Counted from the first letter of the stretch, positions 2 through 16,850 are shown. The stretch: DNA of 43,377 bases from an uncultured Candidatus Saccharibacteria bacterium (GCA_964422785.1 CAYRCJ010000001.1:1-43377); one strand, 5' to 3'. Notes: generated from the letters alone by a model not told the origin. Numbers and translations are program-made.

Positions 2-1528
2 ATCGGCGGGATGACGCTTGCTCCAGGACTCTACAAGTGGAGTACCGACGTTACAATACCAACCAATGTTACTCTCTCCGGTGGCGCAAATGACGTTTGG
101 ATATTCCAAATTGCAGGGGATCTTAGCATTGCCTCCGGCGGTAGCGTTCCCGCTGGTATCAAAGTGGTACTTTCCGGAGGAGCCCAAGCTTCTAATGTTT
201 TCTGGCAGGTTGGCGGTCCTACCGGCGCAACCCTCGGAACATATTCTACGTTCAATGGAAATATATTGAGCGCGAAACAGGTTATCATACAAACCGGCGC
301 GGTATTAAATGGCAGAGCGCTGGCACAATCTCAAGTTACGCTCGATGCCAATACTGTTTCTCTTCCCGTCGTCGCTCCTCTTCCCGCTACCCTTCATGTC
401 GAAAAAGTTGTTGTTAACTCGAGTAGCGTAGGCACAGCAGTCCCTTCCAACTTTACCTTGCATGTAAAGAGCGCCGGCGTGGATGTTTCCGGAAGCCCGG
501 CTGCCGGAACTTCATTACCGGGAACTTCTTATTCGCTTTCCGCCGGCACATACGTAGTAAGTGAAAATACCAATACCTCGTATACGCAAATATTCAGCGG
601 AGATTGCAATTCTAGCGGCAGCATAACTCTCGCTCCGGGCGACGACAAGCTTTGTACGATAATTAACACGGATATTCCGTTGCCGGTTCCTCCACCCCCT
701 CCGCCGCAGCCTTCAGGTGGCAATGGTGCCGGTAGTTATCCAGCTCCGCTTATCAATCTCACAAAAATACCCAGTCCCTTAGCCCTTCCTTCAGGACCTG
801 GTTCGGTAACCTACACATACACAGCAACCAATGTAGGACCTGTGGCTATGAATGATGTGGGTGTAACAGATAACAAATGTGATTCAGTAAAATTTGTTTC
901 AGGAGACACCAACAATGATTCAATGCTTGATAGGGGCGAATCATGGATATATACCTGTACTAAAACAGTCTCTAAAACTGAAACAAACACAGCTACCGCT
1001 CACGGCCGAGCTAATAGTTACGATGCCTACGATGTTTCTACCGCTACTATTGTTGTGGGAGTGCCCGTAGTGCCTCCGTTGATCCATGTGGTAAAGAAAC
1101 CAGACCTATTTATTCTTCCTGCCGGCGGTGGAGCAGTTACTTACTCCTACACCGTAACTAACCCAGGCACAGCTCCATTGAGCGAGGTCAGTATTACTGA
1201 TGACAAATGTACCGGTTTGCCCGGCAGAGTTGTGGGGCATCCTGGAGATCTTAACAATAATAACTTGCTTGAAAGCAACGAATCATGGTCTTTCACTTGC
1301 CAAACCAATATTAAAGAGACCACAACAAACATCGGTACTGCCACAGGTCATGCAAATGGATTGACTGCTGTCGACCTTTCACCTGTTACTGTTGTTGTAT
1401 CGGCACCCGGCCTTCCGAATACCGGAATTGGCGATGGTAGCAGTGTCCCGTGGAACGTAATTATTCCGGCCGGTGTTCTTCTTATCCTGTCCTCTCTCTA
1501 CTTAGCCAGAAAGAAATTGACAGTTTAA
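2..1528 (+). CDS. Cell-wall-anchored surface protein, 5'-truncated by the window edge. It has an ice-binding-like (DUF3494) beta-helix domain, a prealbumin/SpaA-like domain, a Pro-rich linker, two DUF11-type repeats and an LPNTG sorting signal.
   Basis: The frame is open back to nt 2. The motif series GANDVWIFQIAG / NVFWQVGG / NGRALAQ..VTLD is typical of DUF3494. A PPPPPPQP linker follows. Two ~100-aa repeats (VTYTYTATNVG.., VTYSYTVTNPG..) are present. LPNTG lies at nt 1412-1426, followed by a hydrophobic span and an RKK tail. Confidence 0.8.
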   Translation: MGGMTLAPGLYKWSTDVTIPTNVTLSGGANDVWIFQIAGDLSIASGGSVPAGIKVVLSGGAQASNVFWQVGGPTGATLGTYSTFNGNILSAKQVIIQTGAVLNGRALAQSQVTLDANTVSLPVVAPLPATLHVEKVVVNSSSVGTAVPSNFTLHVKSAGVDVSGSPAAGTSLPGTSYSLSAGTYVVSENTNTSYTQIFSGDCNSSGSITLAPGDDKLCTIINTDIPLPVPPPPPPQPSGGNGAGSYPAPLINLTKIPSPLALPSGPGSVTYTYTATNVGPVAMNDVGVTDNKCDSVKFVSGDTNNDSMLDRGESWIYTCTKTVSKTETNTATAHGRANSYDAYDVSTATIVVGVPVVPPLIHVVKKPDLFILPAGGGAVTYSYTVTNPGTAPLSEVSITDDKCTGLPGRVVGHPGDLNNNNLLESNESWSFTCQTNIKETTTNIGTATGHANGLTAVDLSPVTVVVSAPGLPNTGIGDGSSVPWNVIIPAGVLLILSSLYLARKKLTV

Positions 1529-1572
1529 CAGAAGATTGAAAATAGTTGATAAATTTTTTCGCTCTCTCAACA

Positions 1573-1615
1573 AGAGCCAGGCCAAATCTGGCCTGGCTCT
1601 TTTGACGATTTTTTT
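1573..1615 (+). terminator. Rho-independent terminator of the LPNTG protein gene
   Basis: An 11-bp perfect stem agagccaggcc (1573-1583) / ggcctggctct (1590-1600) with a 6-nt loop, followed by a T-rich tract. Confidence 0.7.
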
Positions 1616-1679
1616 CTTTTTAATAATTATTTTATTTAGAAAACCTGTTTTATTTGCGACTAATCAAACTCCAAAAAAA

Positions 1680-2081
1680 ATGAGTTACTACACCAACATA
1701 GTTAATGACGCGAAAGAGAACACAAATTTCCGCCGAGTTTTGTTTACCGGCCAGAAAAGCCAGTTGGTGGTGATGAGTATCCCGCCTGGCGGCGAAGTCG
1801 GAGAAGAAACGCATAAGTATACCGAACAAACGCTTTTTTTTCTTTCAGGAACAGGCGAGGGTGCGCTTGATGACAAAAAGTTCCCGATCGGCCCGGGAGA
1901 TGTTGTTGTTGTAGTCCCCGGCACTAAGCATAATTTTCGTAATACCGGAAAGGAAAATTTAAAAATCTACACCGTCTACGCTCCTCCAAATCACATCGAT
2001 GGCCGAGTACATAAAACCAAGGCTGACGCCGATGCCGACACGGCAGACGAAGCGGTTGGCGAATCTCCAAATTTGAAATAA
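1680..2081 (+). CDS. Cupin-domain protein
   Basis: Cupin-type motifs are present (PPGGEVGEETHKYTEQTLFFLSG ... GPGDVVVVVPGTKHNFRN). I moved the start from TTG 1536 to ATG 1680 because 1573-1600 is the upstream terminator hairpin. Confidence 0.7.
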   Translation: MSYYTNIVNDAKENTNFRRVLFTGQKSQLVVMSIPPGGEVGEETHKYTEQTLFFLSGTGEGALDDKKFPIGPGDVVVVVPGTKHNFRNTGKENLKIYTVYAPPNHIDGRVHKTKADADADTADEAVGESPNLK

Positions 2082-2086
2082 AATCT

Positions 2087-2692
2087 ATGCAATCAAAAAT
2101 CTCGTTAAAGCAAATATTGTTGGCTCTATCAGCGCTTTCTCTGGCGCTTATTTTTTATTTTACCTCAAAGAGTCCGGTTCAAAACAGCCCGGTGCAATTT
2201 GCGAAAAACACCACTGCTTTTTATGGACAAGAAAAAATAAATTCCGGGTTGCCGGTGCGTTTTAAGATTCCCAAAATAGATATTGATACTTCCGTCGAGC
2301 ATGTCGGTCTTACCTCCGGCGGGGCGATGGACATACCCAAAGGGCCGGACGATGTAGCCTGGTTTGATCTTGGCGCTCGCCCTGGAGATGTTGGCAGCGC
2401 AATTATTTCCGGGCATTACGGCTGGAAAAATGGCATACCGGCGGTATTTGATAATTTACATAAATTGCAGAAGGGAGACAAGGTATATGTTGAAGATGAA
2501 AAAGGAAAGACCAACGCTTTCGTGGTGCGAGAATTTCGGACGTATAGTCAAAATGATTACGCTCCGGAAGTTTTTAGCTTAATGGATAGAAAGGCGCACC
2601 TTAATCTGGTTACTTGCGAAGGAGTTTGGGATAAGGCTCAGAAAAGTTATTCCAATAGATTCGTAGTATTTACCGATAAAGAAATTAAATAG
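2087..2692 (+). CDS. Sortase-family transpeptidase with an N-terminal membrane anchor
   Basis: An N-terminal TM segment is followed by the catalytic His context AIISGHYG, the Cys motif LNLVTCEG and a downstream Arg (NRFVVF). Confidence 0.85.
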   Translation: MQSKISLKQILLALSALSLALIFYFTSKSPVQNSPVQFAKNTTAFYGQEKINSGLPVRFKIPKIDIDTSVEHVGLTSGGAMDIPKGPDDVAWFDLGARPGDVGSAIISGHYGWKNGIPAVFDNLHKLQKGDKVYVEDEKGKTNAFVVREFRTYSQNDYAPEVFSLMDRKAHLNLVTCEGVWDKAQKSYSNRFVVFTDKEIK

Positions 2693-3452
2693 CGTCAGTG
2701 AATATTACCAGCCTTTGGCTATAGCTTAATTTGTCCGGATTCCATGCGCCTTCACAGGTAATAAGATTAAGATGAACGCCGCCGTCTCCGGATCTAAAAA
2801 CATCAGCGGCGTCCGCCGCCGGATCGTAACTGCGGATCTCACGGACCATGAAGGTGATGAACGCTCCTTTGTCGTTTAAAATATAGAGAGTGTCCCCCGG
2901 GCGCAATTCGTTTAAATTACTAAACACACCGAGTTTTGTTAATACGCCTCCTCGTATCTGGGCAACATGTCCGGTGACGATGGCGTTGCCTTTTTCTCCG
3001 GGGTGCGGACTGCCCGTAAACCATCCCACGTCAAAAATATTGTTCGGTATTTCCATTGTTCCATCGGATTTGAGGCCATTGTATTGGAAGCTTGCGTCGA
3101 TTGCGAGCTTTGGAATTTTTAGACGCACCGGCAGGCCAGTGGGCTGGGTGGTAGATCCGTTTTCGCTCTTTAAAATGGCTATACTTGTGGGGCCGAAAAA
3201 ACCGCTTGAATAGATGCCAACTTTTGCTTGCCATACCCGAAGCGCTTCCTTCGTAAGTGGACCGAAGTAGCCGGTTGGGGCAACAATTTTTAGAAAACCG
3301 CCTTCAATTAAAAACTGCTGCAGGGCGGATACCTCATCTCCATGAATTCCGATTGTAAGATTATGCGTGAATGTAAAACTTTTGGCGCTATTTCCGGCCG
3401 CAGAAACAGAGATCAACAACCCAAAGAGCCATATTTTATTTGATATTTTCAT
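2685..3452 (-). CDS. Sortase-family transpeptidase fused to an N-terminal peptidoglycan-binding (PG_binding_1-like) domain
   Basis: A signal/anchor segment is followed by GDEVSALQQFLIEGGFL...GYFGPLTKEALRVWQ (PG_binding_1 pattern). The sortase core follows: AIVTGHV, LNLITCEG and RLVIF. The core is a clear paralog of 2087..2692. Confidence 0.85.
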   Translation of the reverse strand: MKISNKIWLFGLLISVSAAGNSAKSFTFTHNLTIGIHGDEVSALQQFLIEGGFLKIVAPTGYFGPLTKEALRVWQAKVGIYSSGFFGPTSIAILKSENGSTTQPTGLPVRLKIPKLAIDASFQYNGLKSDGTMEIPNNIFDVGWFTGSPHPGEKGNAIVTGHVAQIRGGVLTKLGVFSNLNELRPGDTLYILNDKGAFITFMVREIRSYDPAADAADVFRSGDGGVHLNLITCEGAWNPDKLSYSQRLVIFTDAI

Positions 3453-3474
3453 GACATAATAATACTATAAAAGC

Positions 3475-4089
3475 ATGGAGGATAAAAAAATTAATGCCGA
3501 TGAGTTATGGGAGATTGCCTGGACATATATTAGGACTGTCGTGGATACCGTGCGGGAGCCTTTTCTAGTTCTTGATAAAGACCTGCGGGTTCTCTCGGCC
3601 AACAAAACTTTTTATGTGACTTTCCAGACTATTCCCGAAGAAACAGAGGGGAAACTGGTCTATAACTTGGGAAACGGGCAATGGAATATTCCCAACTTAA
3701 AAATATTACTCGAAGATATTTTGCCAAAAAATACCCATTTTGAAGATTTTAAAGTTGAGCATGATTTTCCAAAAATAGGGCTTAAGATCATGATGCTTAA
3801 TGCCCGCCAGGTCCATACGATAGAGGACAAAACAAAACCGATCATGCTTCTGGCCATGGAAGATATTACCAAGCAGATACAGCTTGAGGATAGAATGAAA
3901 GAATTTACAAAAGAACTAACGGTAGAAGTTGCCAAGAGAACGGCAGAATTGGAAGAGCGCGTGGAAGAATTGGAGCGACTGAATAAAACTATGATCGGGA
4001 GGGAATTAAAAATGGTGGAGCTTAAAAAAGAAATCGAAGATTTGAAAGAACAGGTCAATAAAGGCAACGGAAATCATAAAAATGGCTGA
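3475..4089 (+). CDS. Cytoplasmic PAS-domain protein with a C-terminal coiled coil
   Basis: The PAS-like block is REPFLVLDKDLRVLSANKTFYVTF...GNGQWNIPNLKILLEDI...MLNARQV. A heptad-rich tail follows (ELEERVEELERLNK..). Its stop overlaps the kinase start by 8 nt. Confidence 0.7.
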   Translation: MEDKKINADELWEIAWTYIRTVVDTVREPFLVLDKDLRVLSANKTFYVTFQTIPEETEGKLVYNLGNGQWNIPNLKILLEDILPKNTHFEDFKVEHDFPKIGLKIMMLNARQVHTIEDKTKPIMLLAMEDITKQIQLEDRMKEFTKELTVEVAKRTAELEERVEELERLNKTMIGRELKMVELKKEIEDLKEQVNKGNGNHKNG

Positions 4090-5665
4090 TTCAAAAATTT
4101 CCGCCTGGGGAGCAATGTTGGCGGTTCTGACTGTACTTATTGTGTTTTTTGTTTTGACCCGCAAAAGCAAGCTGGGGAAGATAAAAACCAAATTAAAATT
4201 AATACTAATTGTAGTTTTTTTGGGAGGCGTAGCCGGAGCGGGGTATTATTTTCTACTGTTGCCCCCTCACAACCAAGTTAAGCTATTTGGCGTGAATTCT
4301 CCGGTACCGGAGTTTCCATCAACCGGATCCGGCCCAGTTACTCAAATTTTCATCCAATTTCTAAAAAATTTATATAAAACTCCAATATACGGGCTAATTA
4401 CCTCTTCTTTTCTATTTTTTATTATTTTTATGGCCTTTAAAATTATCAGGCCGGATAGGAGGCAAATAGAGAAAGATTTGAAAGATGCAAAGATGGCCGC
4501 CCGAAATGTCCTTGAAGATCTTCAGGCGGAGAAAATAAGGCTTGCTGAAGCGAAGGCAAAAGACGATGCACTGCTAGAGAGTATTGGAGAGGGCGTGGTT
4601 GCTACCGACCAAGCCGGCAAAATGATCATAATGAACAAGGCCGCGGAAGATCTTCTGGGATTCACAAGTCTGGAAATAATGGGGAAGTCATTTGTCGAGG
4701 CAGTTTCTTTGGAAGATGTGGAGGGCAAACAGATTCCCAATACACAGCAACCCATAACTATGGCTCTGACTTTAAGCAAGGCCACAACCGCCACTTACTA
4801 TTTTGTCCGCAAAGACGGAACAAAATTTCCTGTATCAATAACCGCCACACCGGTTCTTCTCGACGCAAAACCAACGGGAGCAATAATTGTATTTCACGAT
4901 ATTACAAAAGAAAAAGAAATTGATAAAGCCAAAACAGAATTCGTTTCTCTGGCATCGCACCAGCTCCGGACGCCGCTTACCGGTATTGAATGGACAACCG
5001 AACTTTTTGCAAAAAAAGAAAAATTAACGGAGGAAGGCAAAAGATACCTCAGTGATATTCGTTTTTCAGCGAAGCGCTTGGGCACACTGGTAAAACTTCT
5101 ATTAAATGTCTCGCGAATTGAGTCCGGGAAGCTTGCCGTTAGTCCGGAGCCGTTGGAATTGGTTGAATTTATCAATGAATACGTCCATGAGCGCCAAATG
5201 TTTTACGGGAAGAAAAAAGTATCTCTTATTTTTGAAACGCATCCCGCAGAACTTCGCATTACCACTGATAAAAATTTGCTAGGTTATATTTTAAGAAATC
5301 TTGTTTCAAACGCCATTGATTATACGCCGCCGCAGGGGAGTGTTGAGATATCGGTGAAAAAAAAGAAAGATACTGTGCTTATTACGGTTCAAGATACGGG
5401 CATCGGCATACCCAAAAAAGAGTCGGGGCGTATTTTTCAAAAATTTGTTCGCGCCTCGAACGCGGTAATTACGAAGCCCGACGGCACCGGACTCGGCCTA
5501 TATATTGCGGCGGAGGCGGTAAAACTTTTGGGTGGAAAAATTTGGTTTGAGTCCGAGGAGGGGCACGGTTCCACTTTTTTTGTTGAAGTTCCTTTTGTAT
5601 CACATGCTCGCCCGGGAGAAAGGGGGCTGGTTTTGGAGAGTCAGTTAGCTCATCCAAAGGAATAG
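4082..5665 (+). CDS. Membrane sensor histidine kinase (TM segments, PAS, HisKA, HATPase_c)
   Basis: Several N-terminal hydrophobic segments are followed by a PAS block (GEGVVATDQAGKMIIMNKAAEDLLG). The H-box is SHQLRTPLTGI, the N-box NLVSNAIDYTP, G1 DTGIGIP and G2 GTGLGL. Confidence 0.9.
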   Translation: MADSKISAWGAMLAVLTVLIVFFVLTRKSKLGKIKTKLKLILIVVFLGGVAGAGYYFLLLPPHNQVKLFGVNSPVPEFPSTGSGPVTQIFIQFLKNLYKTPIYGLITSSFLFFIIFMAFKIIRPDRRQIEKDLKDAKMAARNVLEDLQAEKIRLAEAKAKDDALLESIGEGVVATDQAGKMIIMNKAAEDLLGFTSLEIMGKSFVEAVSLEDVEGKQIPNTQQPITMALTLSKATTATYYFVRKDGTKFPVSITATPVLLDAKPTGAIIVFHDITKEKEIDKAKTEFVSLASHQLRTPLTGIEWTTELFAKKEKLTEEGKRYLSDIRFSAKRLGTLVKLLLNVSRIESGKLAVSPEPLELVEFINEYVHERQMFYGKKKVSLIFETHPAELRITTDKNLLGYILRNLVSNAIDYTPPQGSVEISVKKKKDTVLITVQDTGIGIPKKESGRIFQKFVRASNAVITKPDGTGLGLYIAAEAVKLLGGKIWFESEEGHGSTFFVEVPFVSHARPGERGLVLESQLAHPKE

Positions 5666-5683
5666 TGTATAATAGATTCATAT

Positions 5684-6091
5684 ATGAACACGCAAAAAAT
5701 AGTTTTAGTTGAAGATGATGAAATTTTATCTAAGGTATTGTGCGCCGAGCTAACTGACGCCGGCTTTGAAGTATCACAAGCATTTGACGGAGAAGCGGGC
5801 TTGGAAATGACGCGCTCCAAGCATCCGGATTTGGTACTTCTTGATCTGGTTCTTCCAAAAAAGCACGGGTTTGAAGTATTGGAGGAGCTCAAAAAATCTC
5901 CGGAAACAGAAAGTATCCCGGTGATTATTCTTACGCTTCTTGGAGAAGACGAAGATATTAAAAAGGGTTTGCGGCTCGGCGCAAATGATTATTTGGTAAA
6001 ATCAAGCCACGCGGTCGGCGAGATTATAGAGAAGATAAAAAACTTTTTTGCGAAAGAATCGCATCCAATAGGAGCGGAGCCAACTTTATGA
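5684..6091 (+). CDS. Stand-alone response-regulator receiver (CheY-like, no output domain)
   Basis: The REC signature is VLVEDDE ... DLVLLDLVLPKKHG ... PVIILT ... GANDYLVKS. At 135 aa there is no room for an effector domain. Confidence 0.9.
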   Translation: MNTQKIVLVEDDEILSKVLCAELTDAGFEVSQAFDGEAGLEMTRSKHPDLVLLDLVLPKKHGFEVLEELKKSPETESIPVIILTLLGEDEDIKKGLRLGANDYLVKSSHAVGEIIEKIKNFFAKESHPIGAEPTL

Positions 6092-6471
6092 AAAAGAAAA
6101 TAGTTTTAATTGAGGATGATAAAATACTCTCCGAGACGCTCAGTAGCGGCCTAAATGATGCCGGCTTTGATGTCTTAAGGGCGTATGACGGCGAGGAGGG
6201 GCTGAAGTTGGCAGAGAGCGAGAAGCCGGATCTTATTTTGCTGGATATCCTTCTTCCCAAAATTGACGGCTTGGCCGTTGCCAAAAAATTAAAAAGCGAT
6301 CCGTTAACAACAGATATTCCAATTATTATTCTCACTGTTCTTGAGCAAAATGAATCGGTGGCCGCGGCGCTAGATAGCGGTGTGTACGAGTATATTGTAA
6401 AATCCAATGTCAAGATTGAAGAAATTGTCGCTAGAGTGAAAGAAAAGCTCGAGAACTCCTGGGAAAGATAA
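6088..6471 (+). CDS. Stand-alone response-regulator receiver (second copy)
   Basis: The REC signature is VLIEDDK ... DLILLDILLPKIDG ... PIIILT ... YEYIVKS. It shares a 4-nt ATGA overlap with the preceding receiver gene. Confidence 0.9.
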   Translation: MKKKIVLIEDDKILSETLSSGLNDAGFDVLRAYDGEEGLKLAESEKPDLILLDILLPKIDGLAVAKKLKSDPLTTDIPIIILTVLEQNESVAAALDSGVYEYIVKSNVKIEEIVARVKEKLENSWER

Positions 6472-6478
6472 CGCCACT

Positions 6479-8251
6479 ATGAAAAAATTGTTCATAAATA
6501 TTTTTCGGGGCTTAATGGGAATCAGTCTGGTATTTGTTGCGGCCGGAATTGCTCAATATGCGTATGCGGCAGGCATGGTGGTAGTTACTCCGAGTACTCC
6601 GGACTGGTGGTTTTTTGAGGAAACTCCAACCGGCTCCGGAACTTTTGTTTACGGTCCGTCCACGCCTCCGCTTGGCGGAGGGAGCGCCCAGCTCACAGTC
6701 AACGGCACCGGAGGGGTAATTTTTGGAACATTTGCTTTTGCGGGCACCAGACTTGATGCGATCACGTCTCTTGCGTACAGCACTTACCGAGCTTCCGGCG
6801 GAAGCGCTCTTGCCGCGTCTCTTCAATTGGATATCGATACCAATGTCACGGATGCCAACACAGCATGGCAGGGGAGGCTTGTGTACGAACCATATTATAC
6901 GCACGCCGTTCAGACGGGAGTGTGGCAGACATGGAATCCGCTCGACAACGCCGGCACCGGCAATTGGTGGTTTACCGGTGCGCCTGGAAATGCGGTGTGC
7001 ACAATCAATAATCCGTGTACATGGTCAGAACTTCGCGCCGCCTTTCCAAATGCGGGCATTCGTTCTGCGGGAGTAAACACCGGGGCTCTTCAATTTAAGG
7101 CCGGCGGCGGCTGGAGTGGCGGTTTTGTAGGGAGCGTTGACGCGTTTAGTATCGGTATAAATAATGTGGCAACAACCTATGATTTTGAATTACCTTTTAC
7201 AGTCCCCACAACTACATCGGTTAGCCCTTCTTCTAAGGGCACGGGCGATTCAGCTTTTACCATTACTGTAAACGGTACAAATTTTTTTCCTTCGTCGGTA
7301 GTTCAGTGGAACGGTTCGAATCGCGTCACAACTTTTATTTCTTCTACGCAACTTACCGCGTCTATTCTTTCTTCGGATCTTTCTGCCGCCGGCACTTTTT
7401 CCATTACTGTCGTGAATCCAACCCCCGGCGGTGGTACTTCCAACACGCAGACAGTAGCTGTGACAACTCCGGCAACAACACCCAATCCGGAATCTAGTGA
7501 GGGAGGCAGCAAGGTCGCTCCAACAAGTGTAATTATTTCCGGGCGGGCGTATCCGGGAAGCACAATCGAACTTTTGAGAAAAAGCATCCAAGACGAAACA
7601 TATAGGAATACTCCGGAAGCAATTTCCACTGTATCGGCTGACGGAATTTTTAGAATACAGCTTACCGCTCTTTTGCAAGGACAGTACTTATTTGCTCTCC
7701 GAGCCGTAGATAAAGACGGAAGAAAGACCGGTGTTATCGCGTTTAACACGGATTTATCAAGTACCGATAATTTGGAAGCAAGGGATATTTTTGTCCCTCC
7801 AACCGTTGATTTTGAGAAAGCGGTTGTGGCGCTTGGCAAAGATATAAAAATTCAGGGATACGCCTTCGCTGGAGATAAGATTGATATCGATATAGATGGT
7901 ATAATGAAAGGAGCGGCCACAGCGGACAAAAATGGTTTTTGGTCATATGCGACAAGCACTCGGCCCTTCAGAATCGGAGATCATTACGCGCGCGCGAGGC
8001 AAACTGATGCGAGCGGCAAGGGAAGTGAATTTTCCATTTCTCGCACGTTTCGTGTTTCTCTACTTACTTTCCCGAAAGCGGATTTTAGCGGCGATGATAA
8101 AGTCGATATCACCGATTGGAGTATTTTTCTTTTCCGATGGAATTCAACAGACAAGGACTTAAGAAGCAAAATCGATATTAATGATGACGGAAAAATAGAT
8201 ATCTCCGATTTTAGTATTTTTTTACAAGCAATAAATAATAACAATGAATAA
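6479..8251 (+). CDS. Secreted multidomain protein: unknown ~230-aa N-domain, IPT/TIG-like domain, two Ig-like domains and a C-terminal type-I-like dockerin
   Basis: A signal peptide is present (..AQYAYAAG). The TIG-like block is VSPSSKGTGDSAFTITVNGTNF..VQWNG. The C-terminus carries duplicated Ca-binding segments DFSGDDKVDITDWSIFL and DINDDGKIDISDFSIFL (nt ~8036-8251). Confidence 0.75.
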   Translation: MKKLFINIFRGLMGISLVFVAAGIAQYAYAAGMVVVTPSTPDWWFFEETPTGSGTFVYGPSTPPLGGGSAQLTVNGTGGVIFGTFAFAGTRLDAITSLAYSTYRASGGSALAASLQLDIDTNVTDANTAWQGRLVYEPYYTHAVQTGVWQTWNPLDNAGTGNWWFTGAPGNAVCTINNPCTWSELRAAFPNAGIRSAGVNTGALQFKAGGGWSGGFVGSVDAFSIGINNVATTYDFELPFTVPTTTSVSPSSKGTGDSAFTITVNGTNFFPSSVVQWNGSNRVTTFISSTQLTASILSSDLSAAGTFSITVVNPTPGGGTSNTQTVAVTTPATTPNPESSEGGSKVAPTSVIISGRAYPGSTIELLRKSIQDETYRNTPEAISTVSADGIFRIQLTALLQGQYLFALRAVDKDGRKTGVIAFNTDLSSTDNLEARDIFVPPTVDFEKAVVALGKDIKIQGYAFAGDKIDIDIDGIMKGAATADKNGFWSYATSTRPFRIGDHYARARQTDASGKGSEFSISRTFRVSLLTFPKADFSGDDKVDITDWSIFLFRWNSTDKDLRSKIDINDDGKIDISDFSIFLQAINNNNE

Positions 8252-9977
8252 AAAAGTTTTTTTCATATTTCCGCTTCTCGCCTTTTTCTTTTTCGCGCTT
8301 GAGGCAAGCGCCGCAACCATCTCTTTGTTTCCTGAGTCAAGAAATTTTGTTGTGGGGCAAGAATTCAGTGTGGACATAAAAATTAATACTGAAGAAGTAT
8401 TTATAAACGCCAGCCAAGCGACTATCCGATTTCCTGCCGGCGTTCTTGAGTTAACCCAAGTTGATAAAACCGGTTCCGCATTTGGTTTTTGGACAGATGA
8501 ACCAAAGATATCCAATGAAGAGGGCACAATGAGTTTTACCGGAGGGGCGGGCAAGGGAATTTCCGGAGCCTCTCTCCAGATTTTAAAAATGAAATTTAGG
8601 GCCAAGGCTGCGGGTGCCGCGGATCTTGCTATTCTTGACGCGGCGGTAACTGCGCCTGACGGCAAGGGGACAAATGTACTTTCCAAACTCAATGGAGCAA
8701 ATATTAATATATCATCTGTCCAATTGCCCAATACCGGCACGGTTGTTGCTCCTCCTCCACCGGCCGAAGTAGTAAAGATAGTCCGGCAGCCGGTGCCCGC
8801 CCAAAAATTGCCTCAAAAACCGGAGCTTCGAGTGCCATTATATCCTGATCAGACACAGTGGCACAACAATTTAGGCGACACAGCGGTCCTTTGGAATGTT
8901 CCGGAGGATGTAATAGAGGTAGCCGCCGCTCTGGATAAAAATCCCAATACGATACCTGCAAATCCGGAAAAAGAATTACTCACCGGTAAAAGTTTTGGGA
9001 TTTTAAAAGAGGGCGTTTGGTATATTCATGTACGATTTAGAAATAATGTTGGTTGGGGGGAAACCGCCCACTATAGGATCGCCATTGACACTACAGTGCC
9101 TACGCCATTTGAGGTGAAAATGGATCAGCTTGTGAGCGATAACCCAAGTCCTGAAATACGATATGAGGCGCACGATGCGCTTTCCGGAATTTCTAATAAC
9201 ATTATCTTTCTCGATGGCAAAGAATTTTTGAAATCAACTACCACGTCTACTATATTACCCCCGCAACCCCCGGGCAAACACGCTCTATTGGTAAGAATTT
9301 TCGATTTGGCGGGGAACAGTGTGGAGGCTGATCTTAAGTTTGAAATTTTACCGCTCCCCATGCCGATTATTGAATTTGTAACCAGATCGGTTTCTCAAGA
9401 TGACCTTCTTTTTGCTTCCGGAAAATCAATACCAAATTCTTTTATTGATGCGCGGGCGTTTAATGCTTCACAAGAAGAAGTATTTAAGGGCACCTCACAA
9501 AGCGATGCGTCAGGAAATTGGAAAATAAGCATAGAAAAGGCTTTGCCTACCGGACAATATTTTCTTTCGGTTATAGCCAGGGATGATCGCGGAGCTACGA
9601 GCTATCCTGCCAAACAAGAATTATTTAGTGTGCGGGCTAAAATTATATTGTCGCTCGGAGGATTTATTAATCTCGGTTGGTTTGAGATTTTTATCATTGC
9701 AATGCTTGTTATTATATCCGGATCAAGTTTTATTTCTTGGCGGTACGCTTCAAAAAATAAAATGCATCAGGCCTACGGTATTATTGCGGGGAGAGATGTT
9801 GAGAAAATGGCGGCTCTACTTGAAGGCGATCTCGCGGAGCTCGAAAAACTTCTGAGCATTGGAGCGCGTCCGGAGTTTCCGGAAAAAGCTGGTTCGCTTC
9901 ATCTTTTTGCAAAGCTTCACGAAACAATCGCAAAAATGAAAAAATACCTAGGTGAAGAAGTGGGGAAAATTAAATAA
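8244..9977 (+). CDS. Membrane-anchored cohesin-domain protein (scaffoldin-like)
   Basis: A signal peptide is followed by a cohesin-like block: ISLFPESRNFVVGQEFSVDIKINT...ASQATIRFPAGVLELTQV...LQILKMKFRAKAAGAADLAI. A Pro-rich linker and Ig-like domains follow. A C-terminal TM segment (FEIFIIAMLVIISGSSFISW) precedes an ~80-aa cytoplasmic tail. The gene overlaps the dockerin gene by 8 nt. Confidence 0.75.
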   Translation: MNKKVFFIFPLLAFFFFALEASAATISLFPESRNFVVGQEFSVDIKINTEEVFINASQATIRFPAGVLELTQVDKTGSAFGFWTDEPKISNEEGTMSFTGGAGKGISGASLQILKMKFRAKAAGAADLAILDAAVTAPDGKGTNVLSKLNGANINISSVQLPNTGTVVAPPPPAEVVKIVRQPVPAQKLPQKPELRVPLYPDQTQWHNNLGDTAVLWNVPEDVIEVAAALDKNPNTIPANPEKELLTGKSFGILKEGVWYIHVRFRNNVGWGETAHYRIAIDTTVPTPFEVKMDQLVSDNPSPEIRYEAHDALSGISNNIIFLDGKEFLKSTTTSTILPPQPPGKHALLVRIFDLAGNSVEADLKFEILPLPMPIIEFVTRSVSQDDLLFASGKSIPNSFIDARAFNASQEEVFKGTSQSDASGNWKISIEKALPTGQYFLSVIARDDRGATSYPAKQELFSVRAKIILSLGGFINLGWFEIFIIAMLVIISGSSFISWRYASKNKMHQAYGIIAGRDVEKMAALLEGDLAELEKLLSIGARPEFPEKAGSLHLFAKLHETIAKMKKYLGEEVGKIK

Positions 9978-10166
9978 TCACTAATATGCTGTTATAATTT
10001 TACTGGCAATTTGAACGCCGGAAATCGCCGGGATTATATAGAAGCGGGGATGGAGCCGTTTAAGGCAAGCGAAAAACAAACACTGATCAATTATTATGAA
10101 GTGCCTCCGGATATTTTGGAAAATCCGGACGAGCTGGCCATCTGGGCCAATAAATCGATAGAGTGA
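9978..10166 (+). pseudogene. Remnant of a TfoX/Sxy N-terminal-domain gene (C-terminal ~55 codons only)
   Basis: The open frame ..FTGNLNAGNRRDYIEAGMEPFKASEKQTLINYYEVPPDILENPDELAIWANKSIE* matches the C-terminal half of TfoX_N (compare E. coli Sxy ..TLNYYRVDESLW..). There is no N-terminal half and no convincing start or SD. It begins directly after the cohesin gene stop. Confidence 0.45.
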
Positions 10167-10223: not shown

Positions 10224-10757
10224 ATGCTGGATAAAATAGCCAGATTTATGGAAGTTGAAAATTTAATGCTTAAGTCCAGGTACCTGCTCTTGCCGATGTT
10301 GTTCGCGTTATTGCTGTTGATTTTGAAAATTACAGTTGATTTCGTCATGCTGCTGGCGGGGATGAACGAAGCGGTAAACATAAGCGAGCATACCGTGCAG
10401 GCGCTTGAGCTGCTTGATATCGCGATGATCGCAAATCTTATTTGGCTGATCAGCGCCGGAAGTTTTTACGTGTTTGTGTACACGGAACCGGCCGACGGCG
10501 TTCCTATGAAAAAACGCCCGCGATGTCTAACTCATATTTCTTCGGGCATACTCAAGGAAAAGCTGGCAGGCTCTCTTATGGGCGTTGTATCGGTTTATCT
10601 GCTCAAAATATTTTTCAAAATTGCCGAAGATAAAGAGGTGGTAAATATGCACAAGACAGCCGCGGTGATCGGAATTTACGTCGCCTTTATGATGGGCTTG
10701 CTGGCGTTTAATCATTCGAACGCGTCGGTTCACCACCAACATAACCCAGAAAAATAA
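10224..10757 (+). CDS. yqhA: UPF0114 / YqhA-family inner-membrane protein
   Basis: The N-terminus ..LMLKSRYLLLPMLFALLLLILKI.. and the overall hydrophobic pattern parallel E. coli YqhA (..[20 protein letters not shown]..). The length is similar. Confidence 0.7.
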   Translation: MLDKIARFMEVENLMLKSRYLLLPMLFALLLLILKITVDFVMLLAGMNEAVNISEHTVQALELLDIAMIANLIWLISAGSFYVFVYTEPADGVPMKKRPRCLTHISSGILKEKLAGSLMGVVSVYLLKIFFKIAEDKEVVNMHKTAAVIGIYVAFMMGLLAFNHSNASVHHQHNPEK

Positions 10758-10761
10758 CAAT

Positions 10762-10790
10762 AAAACACCCCGATTTATCGGGGTGTTTTT
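10762..10790. terminator. Bidirectional terminator between convergent genes
   Basis: A 12-bp stem aaaacaccccga / tcggggtgtttt with loop ttta, flanked by A-runs and T-runs on both sides. Confidence 0.7.
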
Positions 10791-10795
10791 ATAAA

Positions 10796-11200
10796 TTATT
10801 CCGGTTGGATTTTGCTGTACAATTTTTGCGGTTGGAGGCGATACTCCACGTCATTATCTTTTAACCACCCTCTTACATTCGCCCAGCGGATAACTGTGAC
10901 AGGTGAGTCCATTGTTATGTTCGGATAAAAACGTTTAAGATCGGCAAGCAATTCTTTTTTGTTTGCGGCTCCGTCATCTCTGCATTCTTCTTCTGTTACC
11001 TCGGAAAGCGTGCAATGACTGACTTGCGTAATATCCGCCATTACCGCCCAAGGTTCTATATGGCAGCAAAGCATCACCGGATTTCCCGCTTTATAATCTC
11101 TATGACCCTCACGGATGGAAACAGTTTTTCTGCCGTAAAGAATTTCTGTTCTGGTTTTGTGACCCGGCGCGACAAGCAATGCGTAAAGCGGCTGTTTCAT
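10796..11200 (-). CDS. ASCH (PUA-like) domain protein
   Basis: The size (~134 aa) and pattern GRKTVSIREGHRDYKAGNPVML...TLSEVTEEECRDDG are consistent with ASCH-domain proteins. This is motif-level recognition only. Confidence 0.55.
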   Translation of the reverse strand: MKQPLYALLVAPGHKTRTEILYGRKTVSIREGHRDYKAGNPVMLCCHIEPWAVMADITQVSHCTLSEVTEEECRDDGAANKKELLADLKRFYPNITMDSPVTVIRWANVRGWLKDNDVEYRLQPQKLYSKIQPE

Positions 11201-13079: not shown

Positions 13080-16000
13080 ATGAATAGAAAAACATATAAA
13101 ACTGTAAGTAAGTTCACTTCAGTTTTATTGAGTGTTGCTACTGTAGGATTGCTTTCAGGAGGTTCGTTGATAATGCCCTTGACTGCCTCTGCTGATACAA
13201 CGTCTGATACAATCGCACAGTTGCAAGCTCAAATAGCTGCCTTAACTGCGCAGTTATCTTCCCTTGCAGGATCGAGTAAGGCATCAGCTGGCGCCTGTGG
13301 ATTTACACGGAGCCTCAGTGTAGGTGCGAAAGGTGACGATGTAACATGTTTGCAAAACTACTTGCAGTCGACAGGACACTTTAACTTTGCAGGTGGAGCA
13401 ACTGGTTACTTCGGTAATGTAACAAAAAATGCAGTAGCTGCATGGCAGGCTGCGAACGGTGTTGCACCGGCTGTAGGGTACTTCGGATCTCTTTCACGAG
13501 CCAAGTATTCTTCAACGGTTTCGGTTTCTCCGACACCAGCACCAACCCCGAACCCAACTCCAGGAACACCGGCTCCAGTACCGGCAGCTTCAGGAACATT
13601 GCGAGTTGACGCTGGAACACAGCCAAATTCAAGTCTTTTCCCAACTAACGCGACACGAGTTCCTTTTACTGTTGTGAAATTTACAGCTCCGGCTGACAAA
13701 GACATAACTGTAAACTCAGTTGTAGTTGAAAGAGATGGTTTGGCAAACGACGCCGCTTTTGCAGGAGTAGTACTCTTGGATGAGCAAGGCATACAATTAG
13801 GAGTTGCGAAAACTCTTAACTCAACCCACCAAGCTACTCTTAGCGAGCCTTTCACTGTAAAGGCCGGGCAAACTCGAACCATGACCCTCGCTGGAAATGC
13901 ACAAACATCCAACGGTGGTTACGGTGGACAGGTTGCTTACTTGAGCTTGGTTAGCGTAAACAGCAATGCTGCTAGCGTTGCAGGTTCTTTGCCAGTTTCT
14001 GGTGCAGGACACACTGTTAACGAAACCTTGACAATCGGTTCTGTTACTTTATTAAGAGGAGCTACAGATCCTGGTTCTAGCCAAACTGAAAATGTTGGCC
14101 AGATAGGATATGTATTCTCAGCTGTTAAAGTTACTGCCGGTTCAGCCGAAAAAGTTTACTTGAGATCAATCAGATGGAACCAAACAGGTTCTGCTGCCTC
14201 AGGAGACTTGGCTAATATCAAGACTTATGTAGAAGGTACAGCTTACGACACAATTGTAAGCTCTGATGGAAAATACTACACCGCGACATTCGGAGACAAC
14301 AGCGGTAAGGGAATCCTCATTGATAAAGGATTTTCTAAAGAGATTTCTATCAAGGGTGATGTTGTGGGTGGATCAGGAAGAAACATAGCATTTGACCTTG
14401 CTAAACGAACAGATATCGGCTTGGTTGGAGAAAATTTCGGTTACGGAATAACTCCTCCTCAAACTGGAGTTGCGGCTGGTACAGATGCTTCATCTTTCAC
14501 CAGCTCTGAGGACCCATGGTATGACGCTTCAGTGGTTACTGTTTCAGCGGGTACAATGAACGTTTCAACTTCAAACACTGCACCTGCTCAGAACATCGCA
14601 GTAAACTTGTCTAACCAACCGTTTGGTTCATTCCAATCCGATGTAAAGGGTGAAGCAATTTCTGTTAGCAGAATTGGTTTCAACGTTACATTGGGTTCAG
14701 AGCCGGCCGCTGGTGATGTAGACGATCTTACAAATGTCACTTTGGTAGACGAAAATGGCGCTGTAGTTGCCGGTCCAGTTGATGGATCCGCCACTGACAG
14801 CTCCAATACTACCGGATCAGGTGATGGTTCAATCGTTTTCACAGACACTGTAACCTTCCCAGTAGGTGTTCACACCTATACTTTGAAGGGTAAAGTTGGT
14901 ACTGATTTGACAAACAATGTCACAATCCAGGCTTCCACAACTCCTTCAACAGACTTCGGAGGAACAGTTCGCGGCTTGATAACTGGCAACACCATTACTC
15001 CAGCCCCGACATCTGCCATTACATTCAACACAATGACTGTAAAGACAGGAAACCTTACAGTTAGCGCATCCAGCGTTCCAATTGCTCAAACCGTTATTTC
15101 AAACGCCAAGGGCTTTACGTTTGCCAACTACATTCTTGACGCCACTGCGTCAGGAGAAGATGTGAGATTGACAACCTTGCCTGTGGTTTACGGAGTAGCA
15201 AATGGTTCCGCTTCAGATCTGACCAATTGTCAGATGTGGGATGGATCAGCTTCTGTTACAACAGGTTCAAACACCAAGAACCCGACATCTCAATCTTCAT
15301 CAACATCATTTACTTTCGATGGAACAGGATTGGTGATTCCAAAAGGATCTTCCAAAACTCTTGCTCTTAAGTGTGATGTAGCTGGAGGAGCTACAGGAGC
15401 ATACATCTGGGGTCTTGACACAGATCAGGCTTCTTCATTCACAGGCGCTACCGGTCTTACCAGCGGTCAAACAATTACCGAAACACTCAATGAGTCAAAC
15501 GGTCAATTAATGACTGCTTCATCTGGAGGATCCTTGGCTGCCACTTTGGATGCCCAAAGTGCTGGATACAAAGTTGTAAATGCCGGAGCTACCGGAGTTG
15601 AACTTTCAAGGATCAGGTTTAGTGCTTCAAATGAAGACATTAACCTTAAGCAAGTAGCCCTGCAGATTACAGGAACTGCTTCTTCAACCGGTGTTGGTTC
15701 AACTACACCAGTAGACTTGGTAGGAAGATCAGTTACTTTGTGGGATGCGGATACAATGCAACAAGTTGGTTCAGCGGTATTCCCGACAAATGCTTTCGCG
15801 ACTTCAAGCGCTATCACAAACTTCAAGATTCCAAGAGACGGCGCAAAGACCCTTATTGTTAAAGGTGATATCGCCGCGATCTCCAACTCAGGTCCTTTGA
15901 CTTCTTCCGGTGATTTGTTGATTGTCGATTACGACGGAGGCAACACCGGTCTCAATGGTACCTATGGAACAGGCGTATCTTCAGGAACCACAATCTCACC

Positions 16001-16850
16001 TACAGGTGCTGACACAGTATCTTCAGGTGTGAGAATCATGAAGGCCTACCCGACACTTACTTACATTCCTCTTACATCTTCTGACAGGACATTAACTCCG
16101 GGAACAACTGCGGATAAGACTCTGTACAGATTCTCTGTTACAGCTAATGGTGGCGATATAGCTTTGTACAAACTTACTTTCCAAGTCAGTTCTACAAGTA
16201 TGACCGCTACTACGTCTCTTTTCTCGCTCTATGCGTACACCGATTCAGCTATGAGTTCCGCGGACACAGGATTTAGCAGCAACGGTTTGCTAAACAACGG
16301 TCAAGACTTCTGTGCTGGAGCTATGGCGAACGCCGCCGGCAACAACACAGTTGGCAACGCCTCTCCTGGAGTTCAGAACCAAAACACACCAGGTCTTTGT
16401 GGAACTGCAGCAGGAAGAATAAACGGATCTCAATTCCCATTGAACATATTCATGGAGAAACTCCAGGCTACTGTTCACTCTGCGACCACGACTTATGTTG
16501 TTCCAAGCGGGACAACCAGATACTTCAGACTTGCCGCTACTGTCGCTAATGTTGAGAATGTTACTGGACAAGAATCATTCACGGTTCAATTGCAAGGCGA
16601 CGCCGCTTTCGCAAGGCCAGCCCACTTGGGTGGAACCGCGGGTAACACAACTATAGGTGAAGAAAACAGAACAGGTAATATGTTTAACGCGTCAACAACA
16701 AACCGCGATAACAACAACAGCTTTATCTGGTCTCCAAGATCAACCAGCACCACGAGTGCATTCCAAGACGTTGACTTCACTAACGGTTATCTCTTGCCAG
16801 GACTCCCGACCAACAACATGCCGATCGAGACTTTCACAAGTCCAAACTAG
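13080..16850 (+). CDS. Large secreted cell-surface protein (candidate S-layer protein): signal peptide, short coiled coil, PG_binding_1-like domain and about six beta-rich repeat domains
   Basis: A signal peptide (..IMPLTASAD) is followed by IAQLQAQIAALTAQLSSL. The PG-binding pattern is GAKGDDVTCLQNYLQ...GYFGNVTKNAVAAWQ, followed by a Pro/Thr linker. About 1000 aa of Thr/Ser/Gly/Val-rich sequence follows with a recurring domain pattern. Codon choice is visibly different (A/T-ending Thr/Ser/Gly/Ala codons). Confidence 0.8.
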   Translation: MNRKTYKTVSKFTSVLLSVATVGLLSGGSLIMPLTASADTTSDTIAQLQAQIAALTAQLSSLAGSSKASAGACGFTRSLSVGAKGDDVTCLQNYLQSTGHFNFAGGATGYFGNVTKNAVAAWQAANGVAPAVGYFGSLSRAKYSSTVSVSPTPAPTPNPTPGTPAPVPAASGTLRVDAGTQPNSSLFPTNATRVPFTVVKFTAPADKDITVNSVVVERDGLANDAAFAGVVLLDEQGIQLGVAKTLNSTHQATLSEPFTVKAGQTRTMTLAGNAQTSNGGYGGQVAYLSLVSVNSNAASVAGSLPVSGAGHTVNETLTIGSVTLLRGATDPGSSQTENVGQIGYVFSAVKVTAGSAEKVYLRSIRWNQTGSAASGDLANIKTYVEGTAYDTIVSSDGKYYTATFGDNSGKGILIDKGFSKEISIKGDVVGGSGRNIAFDLAKRTDIGLVGENFGYGITPPQTGVAAGTDASSFTSSEDPWYDASVVTVSAGTMNVSTSNTAPAQNIAVNLSNQPFGSFQSDVKGEAISVSRIGFNVTLGSEPAAGDVDDLTNVTLVDENGAVVAGPVDGSATDSSNTTGSGDGSIVFTDTVTFPVGVHTYTLKGKVGTDLTNNVTIQASTTPSTDFGGTVRGLITGNTITPAPTSAITFNTMTVKTGNLTVSASSVPIAQTVISNAKGFTFANYILDATASGEDVRLTTLPVVYGVANGSASDLTNCQMWDGSASVTTGSNTKNPTSQSSSTSFTFDGTGLVIPKGSSKTLALKCDVAGGATGAYIWGLDTDQASSFTGATGLTSGQTITETLNESNGQLMTASSGGSLAATLDAQSAGYKVVNAGATGVELSRIRFSASNEDINLKQVALQITGTASSTGVGSTTPVDLVGRSVTLWDADTMQQVGSAVFPTNAFATSSAITNFKIPRDGAKTLIVKGDIAAISNSGPLTSSGDLLIVDYDGGNTGLNGTYGTGVSSGTTISPTGADTVSSGVRIMKAYPTLTYIPLTSSDRTLTPGTTADKTLYRFSVTANGGDIALYKLTFQVSSTSMTATTSLFSLYAYTDSAMSSADTGFSSNGLLNNGQDFCAGAMANAAGNNTVGNASPGVQNQNTPGLCGTAAGRINGSQFPLNIFMEKLQATVHSATTTYVVPSGTTRYFRLAATVANVENVTGQESFTVQLQGDAAFARPAHLGGTAGNTTIGEENRTGNMFNASTTNRDNNNSFIWSPRSTSTTSAFQDVDFTNGYLLPGLPTNNMPIETFTSPN

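Follow-up and report, generated by a model that had tools for sequence, protein, structure and literature searches.

What do two response regulators that consist of a receiver domain only act on, when the genes next to them encode a secreted dockerin protein and a membrane-anchored cohesin protein? This question is raised by a stretch of 43,377 nucleotides (nt) from an uncultured Candidatus Saccharibacteria bacterium (GCA_964422785.1 CAYRCJ010000001.1:1-43377), hereafter the window, in which an initial annotation had noted six co-directional genes, referred to here as g1 to g6. In gene order, in domain identities and in the conservation of both the linkage and the cytoplasmic tail of g6, these genes were found to form a self-contained, conserved unit of the Parcubacteria (Paceibacteria-class Patescibacteria). 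Functional coupling of this module is highly probable. A specific mechanism in which a phosphorylated receiver acts from the inside on the tail of g6 is proposed tentatively, with slightly less than an even chance of being correct. The six open reading frames (ORFs) are listed below.

3475-4089, + strand: g1, 204 amino acids (aa), cytoplasmic PAS-like domain plus coiled coil, without output domain; PAS matches sub-threshold
4082-5665, + strand: g2, histidine kinase of 527 aa with three predicted transmembrane (TM) segments, PAS, HisKA and HATPase_c
5684-6091, + strand: g3, single-domain receiver of 135 aa, termed the G3 type
6088-6471, + strand: g4, single-domain receiver of 127 aa, termed the G4 type
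6479-8251, + strand: g5, secreted dockerin protein
8244-9977, + strand: g6, cohesin/TM/tail protein

All six genes are on the + strand, and their junctions from g1 to g6 are -8, +18, -4, +7 and -8 nt, so that the coordinates and spacings are exactly those first annotated. The description of the module as translationally coupled was borne out in part: the overlaps are present, and a Shine-Dalgarno motif was recognizable only at g4 and perhaps at g5. Because such motifs are mostly absent, it is from the overlaps alone that translational coupling may be predicted.

Whether receiver, dockerin and cohesin genes co-occur in relatives had been set beforehand as a check, and they were found to do so. 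Loss of the arrangement in relatives, which was to count against the initial reading, was thus decisively contradicted. With a g6 profile, 60 loci were collected from species-representative Patescibacteria genomes (61 including the window), and all ORFs of these loci were scored against the six proteins of the window. The g6 family was found in Parcubacteria/Paceibacteria-type Patescibacteria, including Giovannoni-, Lloyd-, Magasanik-, Nealson-, Wolfe-, Colwell-, Nomura-, Harrison-, Adler- and Yonathbacteria, among others. The nearest relative was a metagenome-assembled genome of Giovannonibacteria (L004), whose g6 was 62% identical to that of the window and whose six-gene layout was identical. 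The unit of receiver, dockerin protein and cohesin/TM/tail protein was kept at identities of 35-67% across many Parcubacteria lineages. In 56 of the 61 loci, a dockerin-ending protein was encoded directly upstream of the g6 homolog on the same strand, with a median gap of 10 nt. Among the five exceptions, two were cut by contig ends and one had a frameshifted g6 with the dockerin ORF ~0.8 kb upstream, outside the adjacency window; against the linkage stand only two loci, L043 and L063, where the dockerin protein was truly absent. Moreover, a receiver gene was found within 1 kb and on the same strand in 45 of the 50 informative loci. Each locus contained one cohesin and one dockerin, except for that of a Harrisonbacteria genome (L024), which contained a second cohesin.

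The position of the receiver varied among lineages. Close relatives had it upstream of g5, and Wolfe-, Colwell- and Nomurabacteria-like genomes had it downstream of g6. In distant lineages, the receiver gene directly followed g6, often with overlapping or nearly overlapping stop and start codons; next in line were usually a kinase and another receiver. The independent gene calls of the public assemblies gave the same layout. The genes flanking the module in the window had homologs in only 0-3 of the 60 loci; therefore, it is the module and not its neighborhood that is conserved. Given that all loci are in one phylum and their sequences are related by descent, the adjacency might be a mere relic of common descent within a small clade and mean nothing for function. 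This explanation is extremely improbable, as the identity of g6 falls to ~35% across many candidate orders, the flanks are not conserved, the receiver changes side and stays adjacent, and receivers are about ten times denser beside the g5-g6 pair (0.386 per kb) than more than 3 kb away from it (0.039 per kb).

For the signaling part of the module, Response_reg was the sole match of g3 (2.6e-24, aa 6-118 of 135) and g4 (2.9e-24, aa 5-117 of 127) in Pfam and NCBIfam. Thus, both are bare receivers. They are 48% identical to each other and PhoB/OmpR-like by sequence in NCBIfam, where the PhoB-type matches spanned the receiver half only and were far below the cut-offs. The C-terminal winged-helix output domain was absent from both in Pfam and NCBIfam, and they are not classical OmpR/PhoB regulators. 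The residues for phosphorylation were intact in g3 (E10, D11, D54, T84, Y103, and K106) and, with S or T at position 84, were conserved in 46 G3-type receivers and g4. Also conserved were the charged residues D89, K93, D102, E113, and K117 on the alpha4-beta5-alpha5 face, which in the PhoB/OmpR family mediates phosphorylation-dependent dimerization. When considered as a signature of the module, residues that seemed specific to G3 proved to be in part the general GADDY-x-x-K motif of OmpR/PhoB receivers and were therefore not unique. In other genomes, the G3 type was the receiver type that most often adjoined the surface gene pair; receivers were typed by the difference between their scores to g3 and g4, which is a rough proxy of orthology, and average-linkage clustering did not separate the types.

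The kinase g2 contained PAS, HisKA (5.5e-15), and HATPase_c (7.7e-30) domains in Pfam and NCBIfam, and thus both domains of a HisKA kinase, as well as the H-box SHQLRTPL. Besides those of the module, no receiver or kinase was found in the 43-kb window, and the adjacency of the genes suggests that g2 transfers phosphate to g3 and g4. In g1, matches to PAS_8, PAS_9, PAS, and PAS_4 in the same databases were sub-threshold (E ~1e-3, aa 18-133) and were accompanied by a coiled coil. Its designation as a PAS protein is plausible but weak, and g1 orthologs also stand directly before the kinase in the Giovannonibacteria locus and in L006. Thus, of the domain assignments in the initial annotation, those of the kinase, the two bare receivers and the dockerin held, that of the cohesin was recovered with an AlphaFold2 (AF2) model and not with Pfam, and that of the PAS domain was weak.

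The annotated lack of a DNA-binding output applies beyond the window: 80 of the 85 receiver ORFs in the loci were single-domain (165 aa or shorter) and only 2 were of a size compatible with a DNA-binding regulator. These numbers bear on the possibility that the two-component system merely controls the surface genes transcriptionally or is co-expressed with them, with the DNA-binding partner encoded elsewhere or the receivers serving as phosphate sinks or shuttles; the tail of g6 would then serve in membrane anchoring, oligomerization or secretion without touching the relay. Operon membership alone would explain the adjacency, G3-like receivers also occur without g5 and g6, and two-component systems beside dockerin-protein genes are known to act transcriptionally. 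In Clostridium cellulolyticum, the XydS/R two-component system is encoded upstream of the xyl-doc cluster, and XydR binds DNA and controls transcription (PMC3572039). Similar to XydS/R, the module has two-component genes beside genes for dockerin proteins; different from XydR, its receivers lack an output domain. We consider such co-regulation unlikely, given that a DNA-binding regulator is essentially never found in the loci, that the linkage survives rearrangements and unrelated genomic contexts, which is more than co-expression requires, and that a simple anchor would not need the invariant residues and the conserved surface of the tail described below.

The kinases linked to the surface genes differed among the loci. 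Of 37 linked kinases, 13 had no TM segment, 14 had one or two, and 10 had at least three. Some of those with one or two TM segments carried an extracytoplasmic loop of ~290 aa, and the sensor domains included arrays of PAS, GAF, and MASE3. Thus, the inputs of the kinases vary and the receiver, the stalk and dockerin of g5 and the whole of g6 are constant, which fits many inputs that feed one conserved output.

The secreted protein g5 consists of four parts:

6479-6568, + strand: signal peptide of g5, aa 1-30, cleavage AYA|A, read from the translation; one N-terminal hydrophobic segment
6569-7198, + strand: variable head of g5, aa 31-240, unrelated to the heads of other dockerin proteins
7199-8023, + strand: conserved stalk of g5, aa 241-515, with a PGGG repeat domain and two immunoglobulin (Ig)-like domains
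8024-8236, + strand: C-terminal dockerin of g5, aa 516-586, with two Ca-binding F-hand repeats

The whole g5 protein matched the dockerin family PF00404 with 21.4 bits, which is below the gathering cut-off of 22.9, and its C-terminus alone matched with 24.6 bits, which is above it. Moreover, 40 of 41 homologous C-termini matched PF00404, the best with 4.3e-13. The two tandem repeats of the form DxNxDGxxxxxD at the C-terminus are DFSGDDKVDITD and DINDDGKIDISD, and D17, D28, D48, and D59 of the dockerin were invariant in 41 homologs. The dockerin family profile matched cellulosomal dockerins in PDB at 1e-6, a level at which EF-hand proteins score similarly. Judged from these sequence features, g5 contains a genuine dockerin of type I. 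The stalk matched NF058597 in NCBIfam at 2.5e-31 as well as Big_6 and Big_13 in Pfam, and this region was common to ~50 homologs. The shortest dockerin proteins of the loci were ~400 aa and the longest more than 2,700 aa; common to them are the C-terminal ~350 aa, which comprise the PGGG repeat domain, two Ig-like domains and the dockerin, and their N-terminal heads differ. No glycoside hydrolase domain was found in g5 with Pfam or NCBIfam. The head of g5 had more than 100 homologs (46-67% identity) that are stand-alone secreted proteins of ~260-290 aa, for example in Chloroflexota, Nitrosocaldus, and Halobacteriales, a few of them with PEP-CTERM or dockerin ends. It had no sequence match in PDB and behaves as a choice-of-anchor domain of unknown function.

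The partner protein g6 consists of the following parts:

8244-8312, + strand: signal peptide of g6, aa 1-23, cleavage ASA|A
8313-8717, + strand: cohesin module of g6, aa 24-158
8811-9653, + strand: three Ig-like domains of g6, aa ~190-470, including Y_Y_Y-like and Big_13 domains
9672-9740, + strand: TM helix of g6, aa 477-499
9741-9977, + strand: cytoplasmic helical-hairpin tail of g6, aa 500-577 plus the stop codon

Members of the g6 family are ~580 aa at full length. The Pfam family Cohesin (PF00963) had no match in the g6 of the window at E <= 0.1. It was matched by 9 of 27 members of the g6 family, the best at 7.2e-8, and the family profile matched scaffoldin cohesins of Ruminococcus flavefaciens marginally (E 0.015-0.04). 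The AF2 model of aa 22-160, with a predicted local distance difference test score (pLDDT) of 96.2 and a predicted TM-score (pTM) of 0.89, gave a stronger result: in a Foldseek search of PDB, the best 50 of 50 matches were cohesins, with E-values from 1e-8 to 8.5e-7 and TM-scores of up to 0.82. The N-terminal domain of g6, as modeled, is a nine-stranded beta-sandwich (jelly-roll) of the cohesin fold. With the full-length model, Foldseek retrieved mainly generic multi-Ig proteins and gave little information on the cohesin; the N-terminal domain alone was used instead. In the full-length AF2 model (pLDDT 83), g6 was composed of the signal peptide, the cohesin, a disordered Pro-rich linker, three Ig-like domains, the TM helix and a hairpin. 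The adjacency of the two genes in 56 of the 61 loci, the ~1:1 pairing of cohesin and dockerin and the co-variation of their distances suggest that g5 and g6 bind each other through these domains.

The cytoplasmic tail after the TM segment, annotated as ~80 aa, was found to be 78 aa with a K/R-rich start. In the AF2 model, the TM helix runs on into a two-helix cytoplasmic hairpin (aa 500-577). Residues Y511, R517, D518, and Y568 of the tail were invariant. Two motifs were found, of which AY-x-x-I-x-G-RD-x-x-K is just after the membrane and KMKKY-x-x-x-E-x-x-K-L-K is at the very C-terminus, and lineage-specific insertions fall between them. The helix register suggests that these insertions are at the tip of the hairpin and that the two motifs are side by side at its membrane-proximal base. 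A search of 1.84 billion representative proteins with the tail profile identified 89 proteins, in nearly all of which the tail was C-terminal; the full-length ones were 566-682 aa. Because these matches carry the tail C-terminally on proteins of the family, the tail is private to the g6 family in this search. The tail was also considered as a degenerate dimerization and histidine phosphotransfer (DHp) domain of a kinase, an assignment that was rejected for the lack of a conserved His and of profile support.

The combination of many inputs, one bare receiver and one conserved tail that has no other evident role suggests that the tail is what the receiver acts on. In the mechanism proposed here, the outputs of a two-component phosphorelay would be stand-alone receivers only, and they would be coupled to a private 1:1 surface complex. 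Secreted g5, with its lineage-variable head, conserved stalk and dockerin, would dock onto the single cohesin of g6, a putative type-I membrane protein with a cohesin, three Ig-like domains, one TM segment and a cytoplasmic helical hairpin of 78 aa. Phosphate would pass from the kinase, with its lineage-specific inputs, to the PhoB-like single-domain receiver, which would then, probably as a dimer formed via alpha4-beta5-alpha5, bind the membrane-proximal base of the g6 hairpin, where it could bridge two tails. Such binding would alter the anchor in its clustering, conformation or stability and, by this means, the presentation of the variable head for adhesion to host or substrate. Both the contact between receiver and tail and the direction of signaling from the cytoplasm to the surface are thus predicted features of the mechanism.

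Co-variation between the parts was assessed by mirror-tree comparison with partial Mantel tests, which control for the divergence of the Ig region and are liberal under shared phylogeny. Partial r was 0.43 for tail and receiver, 0.32 for cohesin and dockerin, 0.06 for dockerin and receiver, and 0.03 for tail and dockerin. These results are in the expected direction, not clean and only suggestive, because the control pair of cohesin and receiver was also positive.

Several observations weigh against the receiver-tail mechanism. The control pair reached a partial r of 0.29, and residual phylogenetic signal inflates all of these values. The confidence of the tail model was moderate, with a pLDDT of 56-72. 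No natural fusions of the tail were found among the 1.84 billion representative proteins, and its profile had no meaningful match in Pfam or PDB sequences and revealed no known receiver-binding motif or domain. Five of the 50 informative loci had no receiver within 1 kb. Moreover, about 12 of ~20 metagenomic G3-like receivers with adequate flanks belonged to plain kinase-receiver pairs without g5 or g6, and a rule that places every G3-like receiver beside g5-g6 thus fails. Finally, a DNA-binding regulator may be encoded elsewhere in the genome.

The co-variation of tail and receiver fits equally well with signaling in the opposite direction, in which the surface complex serves the phosphorelay as its sensor instead of being its target, that is, a plug-in receptor with exchangeable heads. 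The head of g5 would bind a ligand on the host surface or in the environment, the cohesin-dockerin link would pass force or clustering to g6, and the g6 hairpin would recruit, sequester or release the receiver or modulate the kinase. A modular receptor would be expected to show this pattern of variable heads on an invariant stalk, dockerin and g6, and g6 is laid out like single-pass receptors, with ectodomains, one TM segment and a conserved tail. Many of the linked kinases also lack an extracellular domain, as exemplified by the 13 of 37 without a TM segment, and would need an external sensor. Other linked kinases, however, own large extracytoplasmic or multi-PAS/GAF inputs and do not need g6 as a sensor. 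The target downstream of the receiver would also be left unexplained, and no conserved type of kinase able to read the tail was found among the loci. Sensing through the surface complex is therefore regarded as quite unlikely.

A broader reading, which we hold with some reserve, is that the cohesin-dockerin joint serves as a modular transmembrane signaling device, in which exchangeable g5 heads are joined non-covalently to an invariant single-pass g6 transducer whose hairpin binds a phosphorylatable receiver directly. If so, a two-component system of Parcubacteria would take its signal from a surface adhesin, or pass one to it, with no transcription step in between. The tail would then represent a new class of response-regulator target, and the device would be a bacterial analog of integrin- or TMEM132-like receptors.

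Comparisons with known systems delimit what is unusual in the module. Similar to the anchoring scaffoldins of cellulosomes (Clostridium thermocellum SdbA/OlpB type; PDB 6kgc, 4dh2, and 2b59), g6 is predicted to be a cell-anchored cohesin protein of the same fold (TM-scores 0.7-0.82), and its partner is secreted and carries at its C-terminus a Ca-binding dockerin with two repeats. Different from these scaffoldins, however, one cohesin and one dockerin are encoded per locus (L024 excepted) instead of arrays, g5 of the window contains no glycoside hydrolase, g6 is anchored by a TM helix that is followed by a conserved tail in the cytoplasm, instead of by SLH or sortase anchoring, and the pair is linked to a phosphorelay. 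Classification of the module as a cellulosome was rejected, as a multi-cohesin scaffoldin with several dockerin enzymes was not found. Non-cellulosomal cohesin-dockerin pairs, including those of Clostridium perfringens toxins and glycosidases (PDB 2jh2, 2vo8, 2w1n, and 2ozn) and Archaeoglobus fulgidus (2xdh), were among the top structural matches, and 2w1n was also retrieved with the full-length g6 model. Similar to the module, they use cohesin and dockerin for purposes other than cellulose breakdown. They are secreted or wall-associated enzymes, however, with neither a TM/tail transducer nor a conserved two-component linkage.

RsgI/SigI of cellulosome producers are transmembrane anti-sigma sensor systems, in which RsgI is partnered by a sigma factor and has its anti-sigma domain in the cytoplasm, at the N-terminus. 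Similar to RsgI, g6 is a single-pass membrane protein that would connect a module for extracellular binding with a regulatory segment in the cytoplasm, and RsgI also occurs in organisms with cohesins and dockerins. Different from RsgI, g6 has the opposite topology, with the signal peptide at its N-terminus and the cytoplasmic tail at its C-terminus. No anti-sigma domain was found in g6, and neither such domains nor a sigma factor was found in its neighbors, which sets g6 apart from the RsgI type. With regard to other single-domain regulators, such as those in CheY-FliM, DivK-DivL/PleC, and CpdR-ClpXP, g3 and g4 are likewise stand-alone with intact phospho-acceptor residues, and protein partners are their only plausible outputs. 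Different from CheY, DivK, and CpdR, g3 and g4 are PhoB/OmpR-type by sequence and not orthologs, and the g6 tail has no similarity to FliM-N or other known receiver-binding peptides. We know of no precedent for the tail of a surface-protein anchor as the partner of a single-domain receiver. The closest match in architecture is TMEM132 of animals and choanoflagellates, which contains a cohesin homolog, three tandem bacterial-type Ig domains, a TM segment and a tail with protein-docking motifs (PMC6030884). The modeled domain order of g6 is the same, a resemblance of architecture only; TMEM132 is eukaryotic, has no known dockerin partner and directs its tail motifs at actin regulators.

Some loci deviated from the common layout. 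In the Harrisonbacteria locus (L024, 7605-11113), two tandem g6 paralogs follow one dockerin protein and are followed by a kinase and two receivers. In a Lloydbacteria locus (L001, 2061-5946), a KaiC-like ATPase, a stand-alone MASE3 protein (267 aa), and a stand-alone dCache-HAMP protein (425 aa) are encoded between a large PAS/GAF kinase and the two receivers; the dCache-HAMP protein has no kinase domain, and these are split parts of a sensor. In two further loci (L025, 4672-6984, and L060, 11759-13822), receiver-containing proteins of 770 and 687 aa, respectively, with uncharacterized extra regions adjoin the dockerin/g6 pair, where the single-domain receiver sits elsewhere, and they might reveal an output domain. 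Finally, proteins of 265-287 aa in four metagenomic loci (L116, L118, L129, and L131) scored ~159-174 bits with g3 and ~126-132 bits with g4 and could represent fusions of two receivers in tandem, with a relation to the g3-g4 pair.

At its upstream side in the window, the module is preceded by a promoter-like site:

3440-3468, + strand: TTGATA-17-TACTAT, resembling a promoter, within the 22 nt that separate g1 from a divergent sortase gene and 6 nt before the g1 start

This site is weak evidence, because it fits 9 of 12 positions and a scan for promoters and terminators found this region not enriched over shuffled sequences. A second, sortase-based surface-display system adjoins the module on this side. 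Its genes (11-3452 in total) encode a surface protein with Ice_binding-like, SpaA_2, and DUF7507 domains and an LPNTG sorting signal, truncated at the window start, and then a cupin and two sortases. The two sortase genes are convergent, with 3' ends that overlap by 8 nt (2685-2692), and one of them encodes a PG_binding_1 domain.

On the downstream side, the unit most likely ends after g6. The 246-nt gap that follows contains an ORF of 51 aa (10011-10166, + strand) that matched TfoX_N (PF04993) at 8.6e-11. The match is confined to the C-terminal half of this profile (positions 41-89 of 91), and the ORF is probably the remnant of a decayed TfoX-like gene. The next gene, for a UPF0114 membrane protein (10224-10757), has its own strong ribosome-binding site. 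Between it and the convergent ASCH gene (10796-11200, minus strand), a 12-bp hairpin (10762-10789), perfectly palindromic and bordered by runs of A and T, looks like a bidirectional terminator. Farther downstream, a secreted protein of 1,256 aa (13080-16850), whose only recognizable domain is PG_binding_1, has a homolog in only one other locus (L015).

Full-text literature searches found neither a two-component system conserved beside a cohesin-dockerin pair in Candidate Phyla Radiation (CPR) bacteria nor a description of the g6 family, in line with the original remark that no description of a two-component system tied to a cohesin-dockerin surface complex was known to its author. The parts of the module, a HisKA two-component system, a cohesin and a dockerin, are known; their combination is new, and its output plausibly so. 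Parcubacteria and other CPR bacteria have genomes of ~1 Mb that encode few regulators, and their lifestyle is thought to be one of attachment to other cells. To our knowledge, how they sense and control this attachment is largely unknown. A dockerin-domain envelope protein is essential in the cultivated Southlakia, the one Patescibacterium known to be genetically tractable (PMC10633639), which lends biological plausibility to a role of the module in attachment. The module thus offers a specific case, open to testing, in which a host-contact structure may be controlled post-translationally or may itself serve in sensing, and its invariant g6 with swappable g5 heads could serve as a natural display system. 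If the contact between receiver and tail is real, it would add a new class of output to two-component signaling and would make cohesin-dockerin a signaling joint and not an enzyme scaffold.

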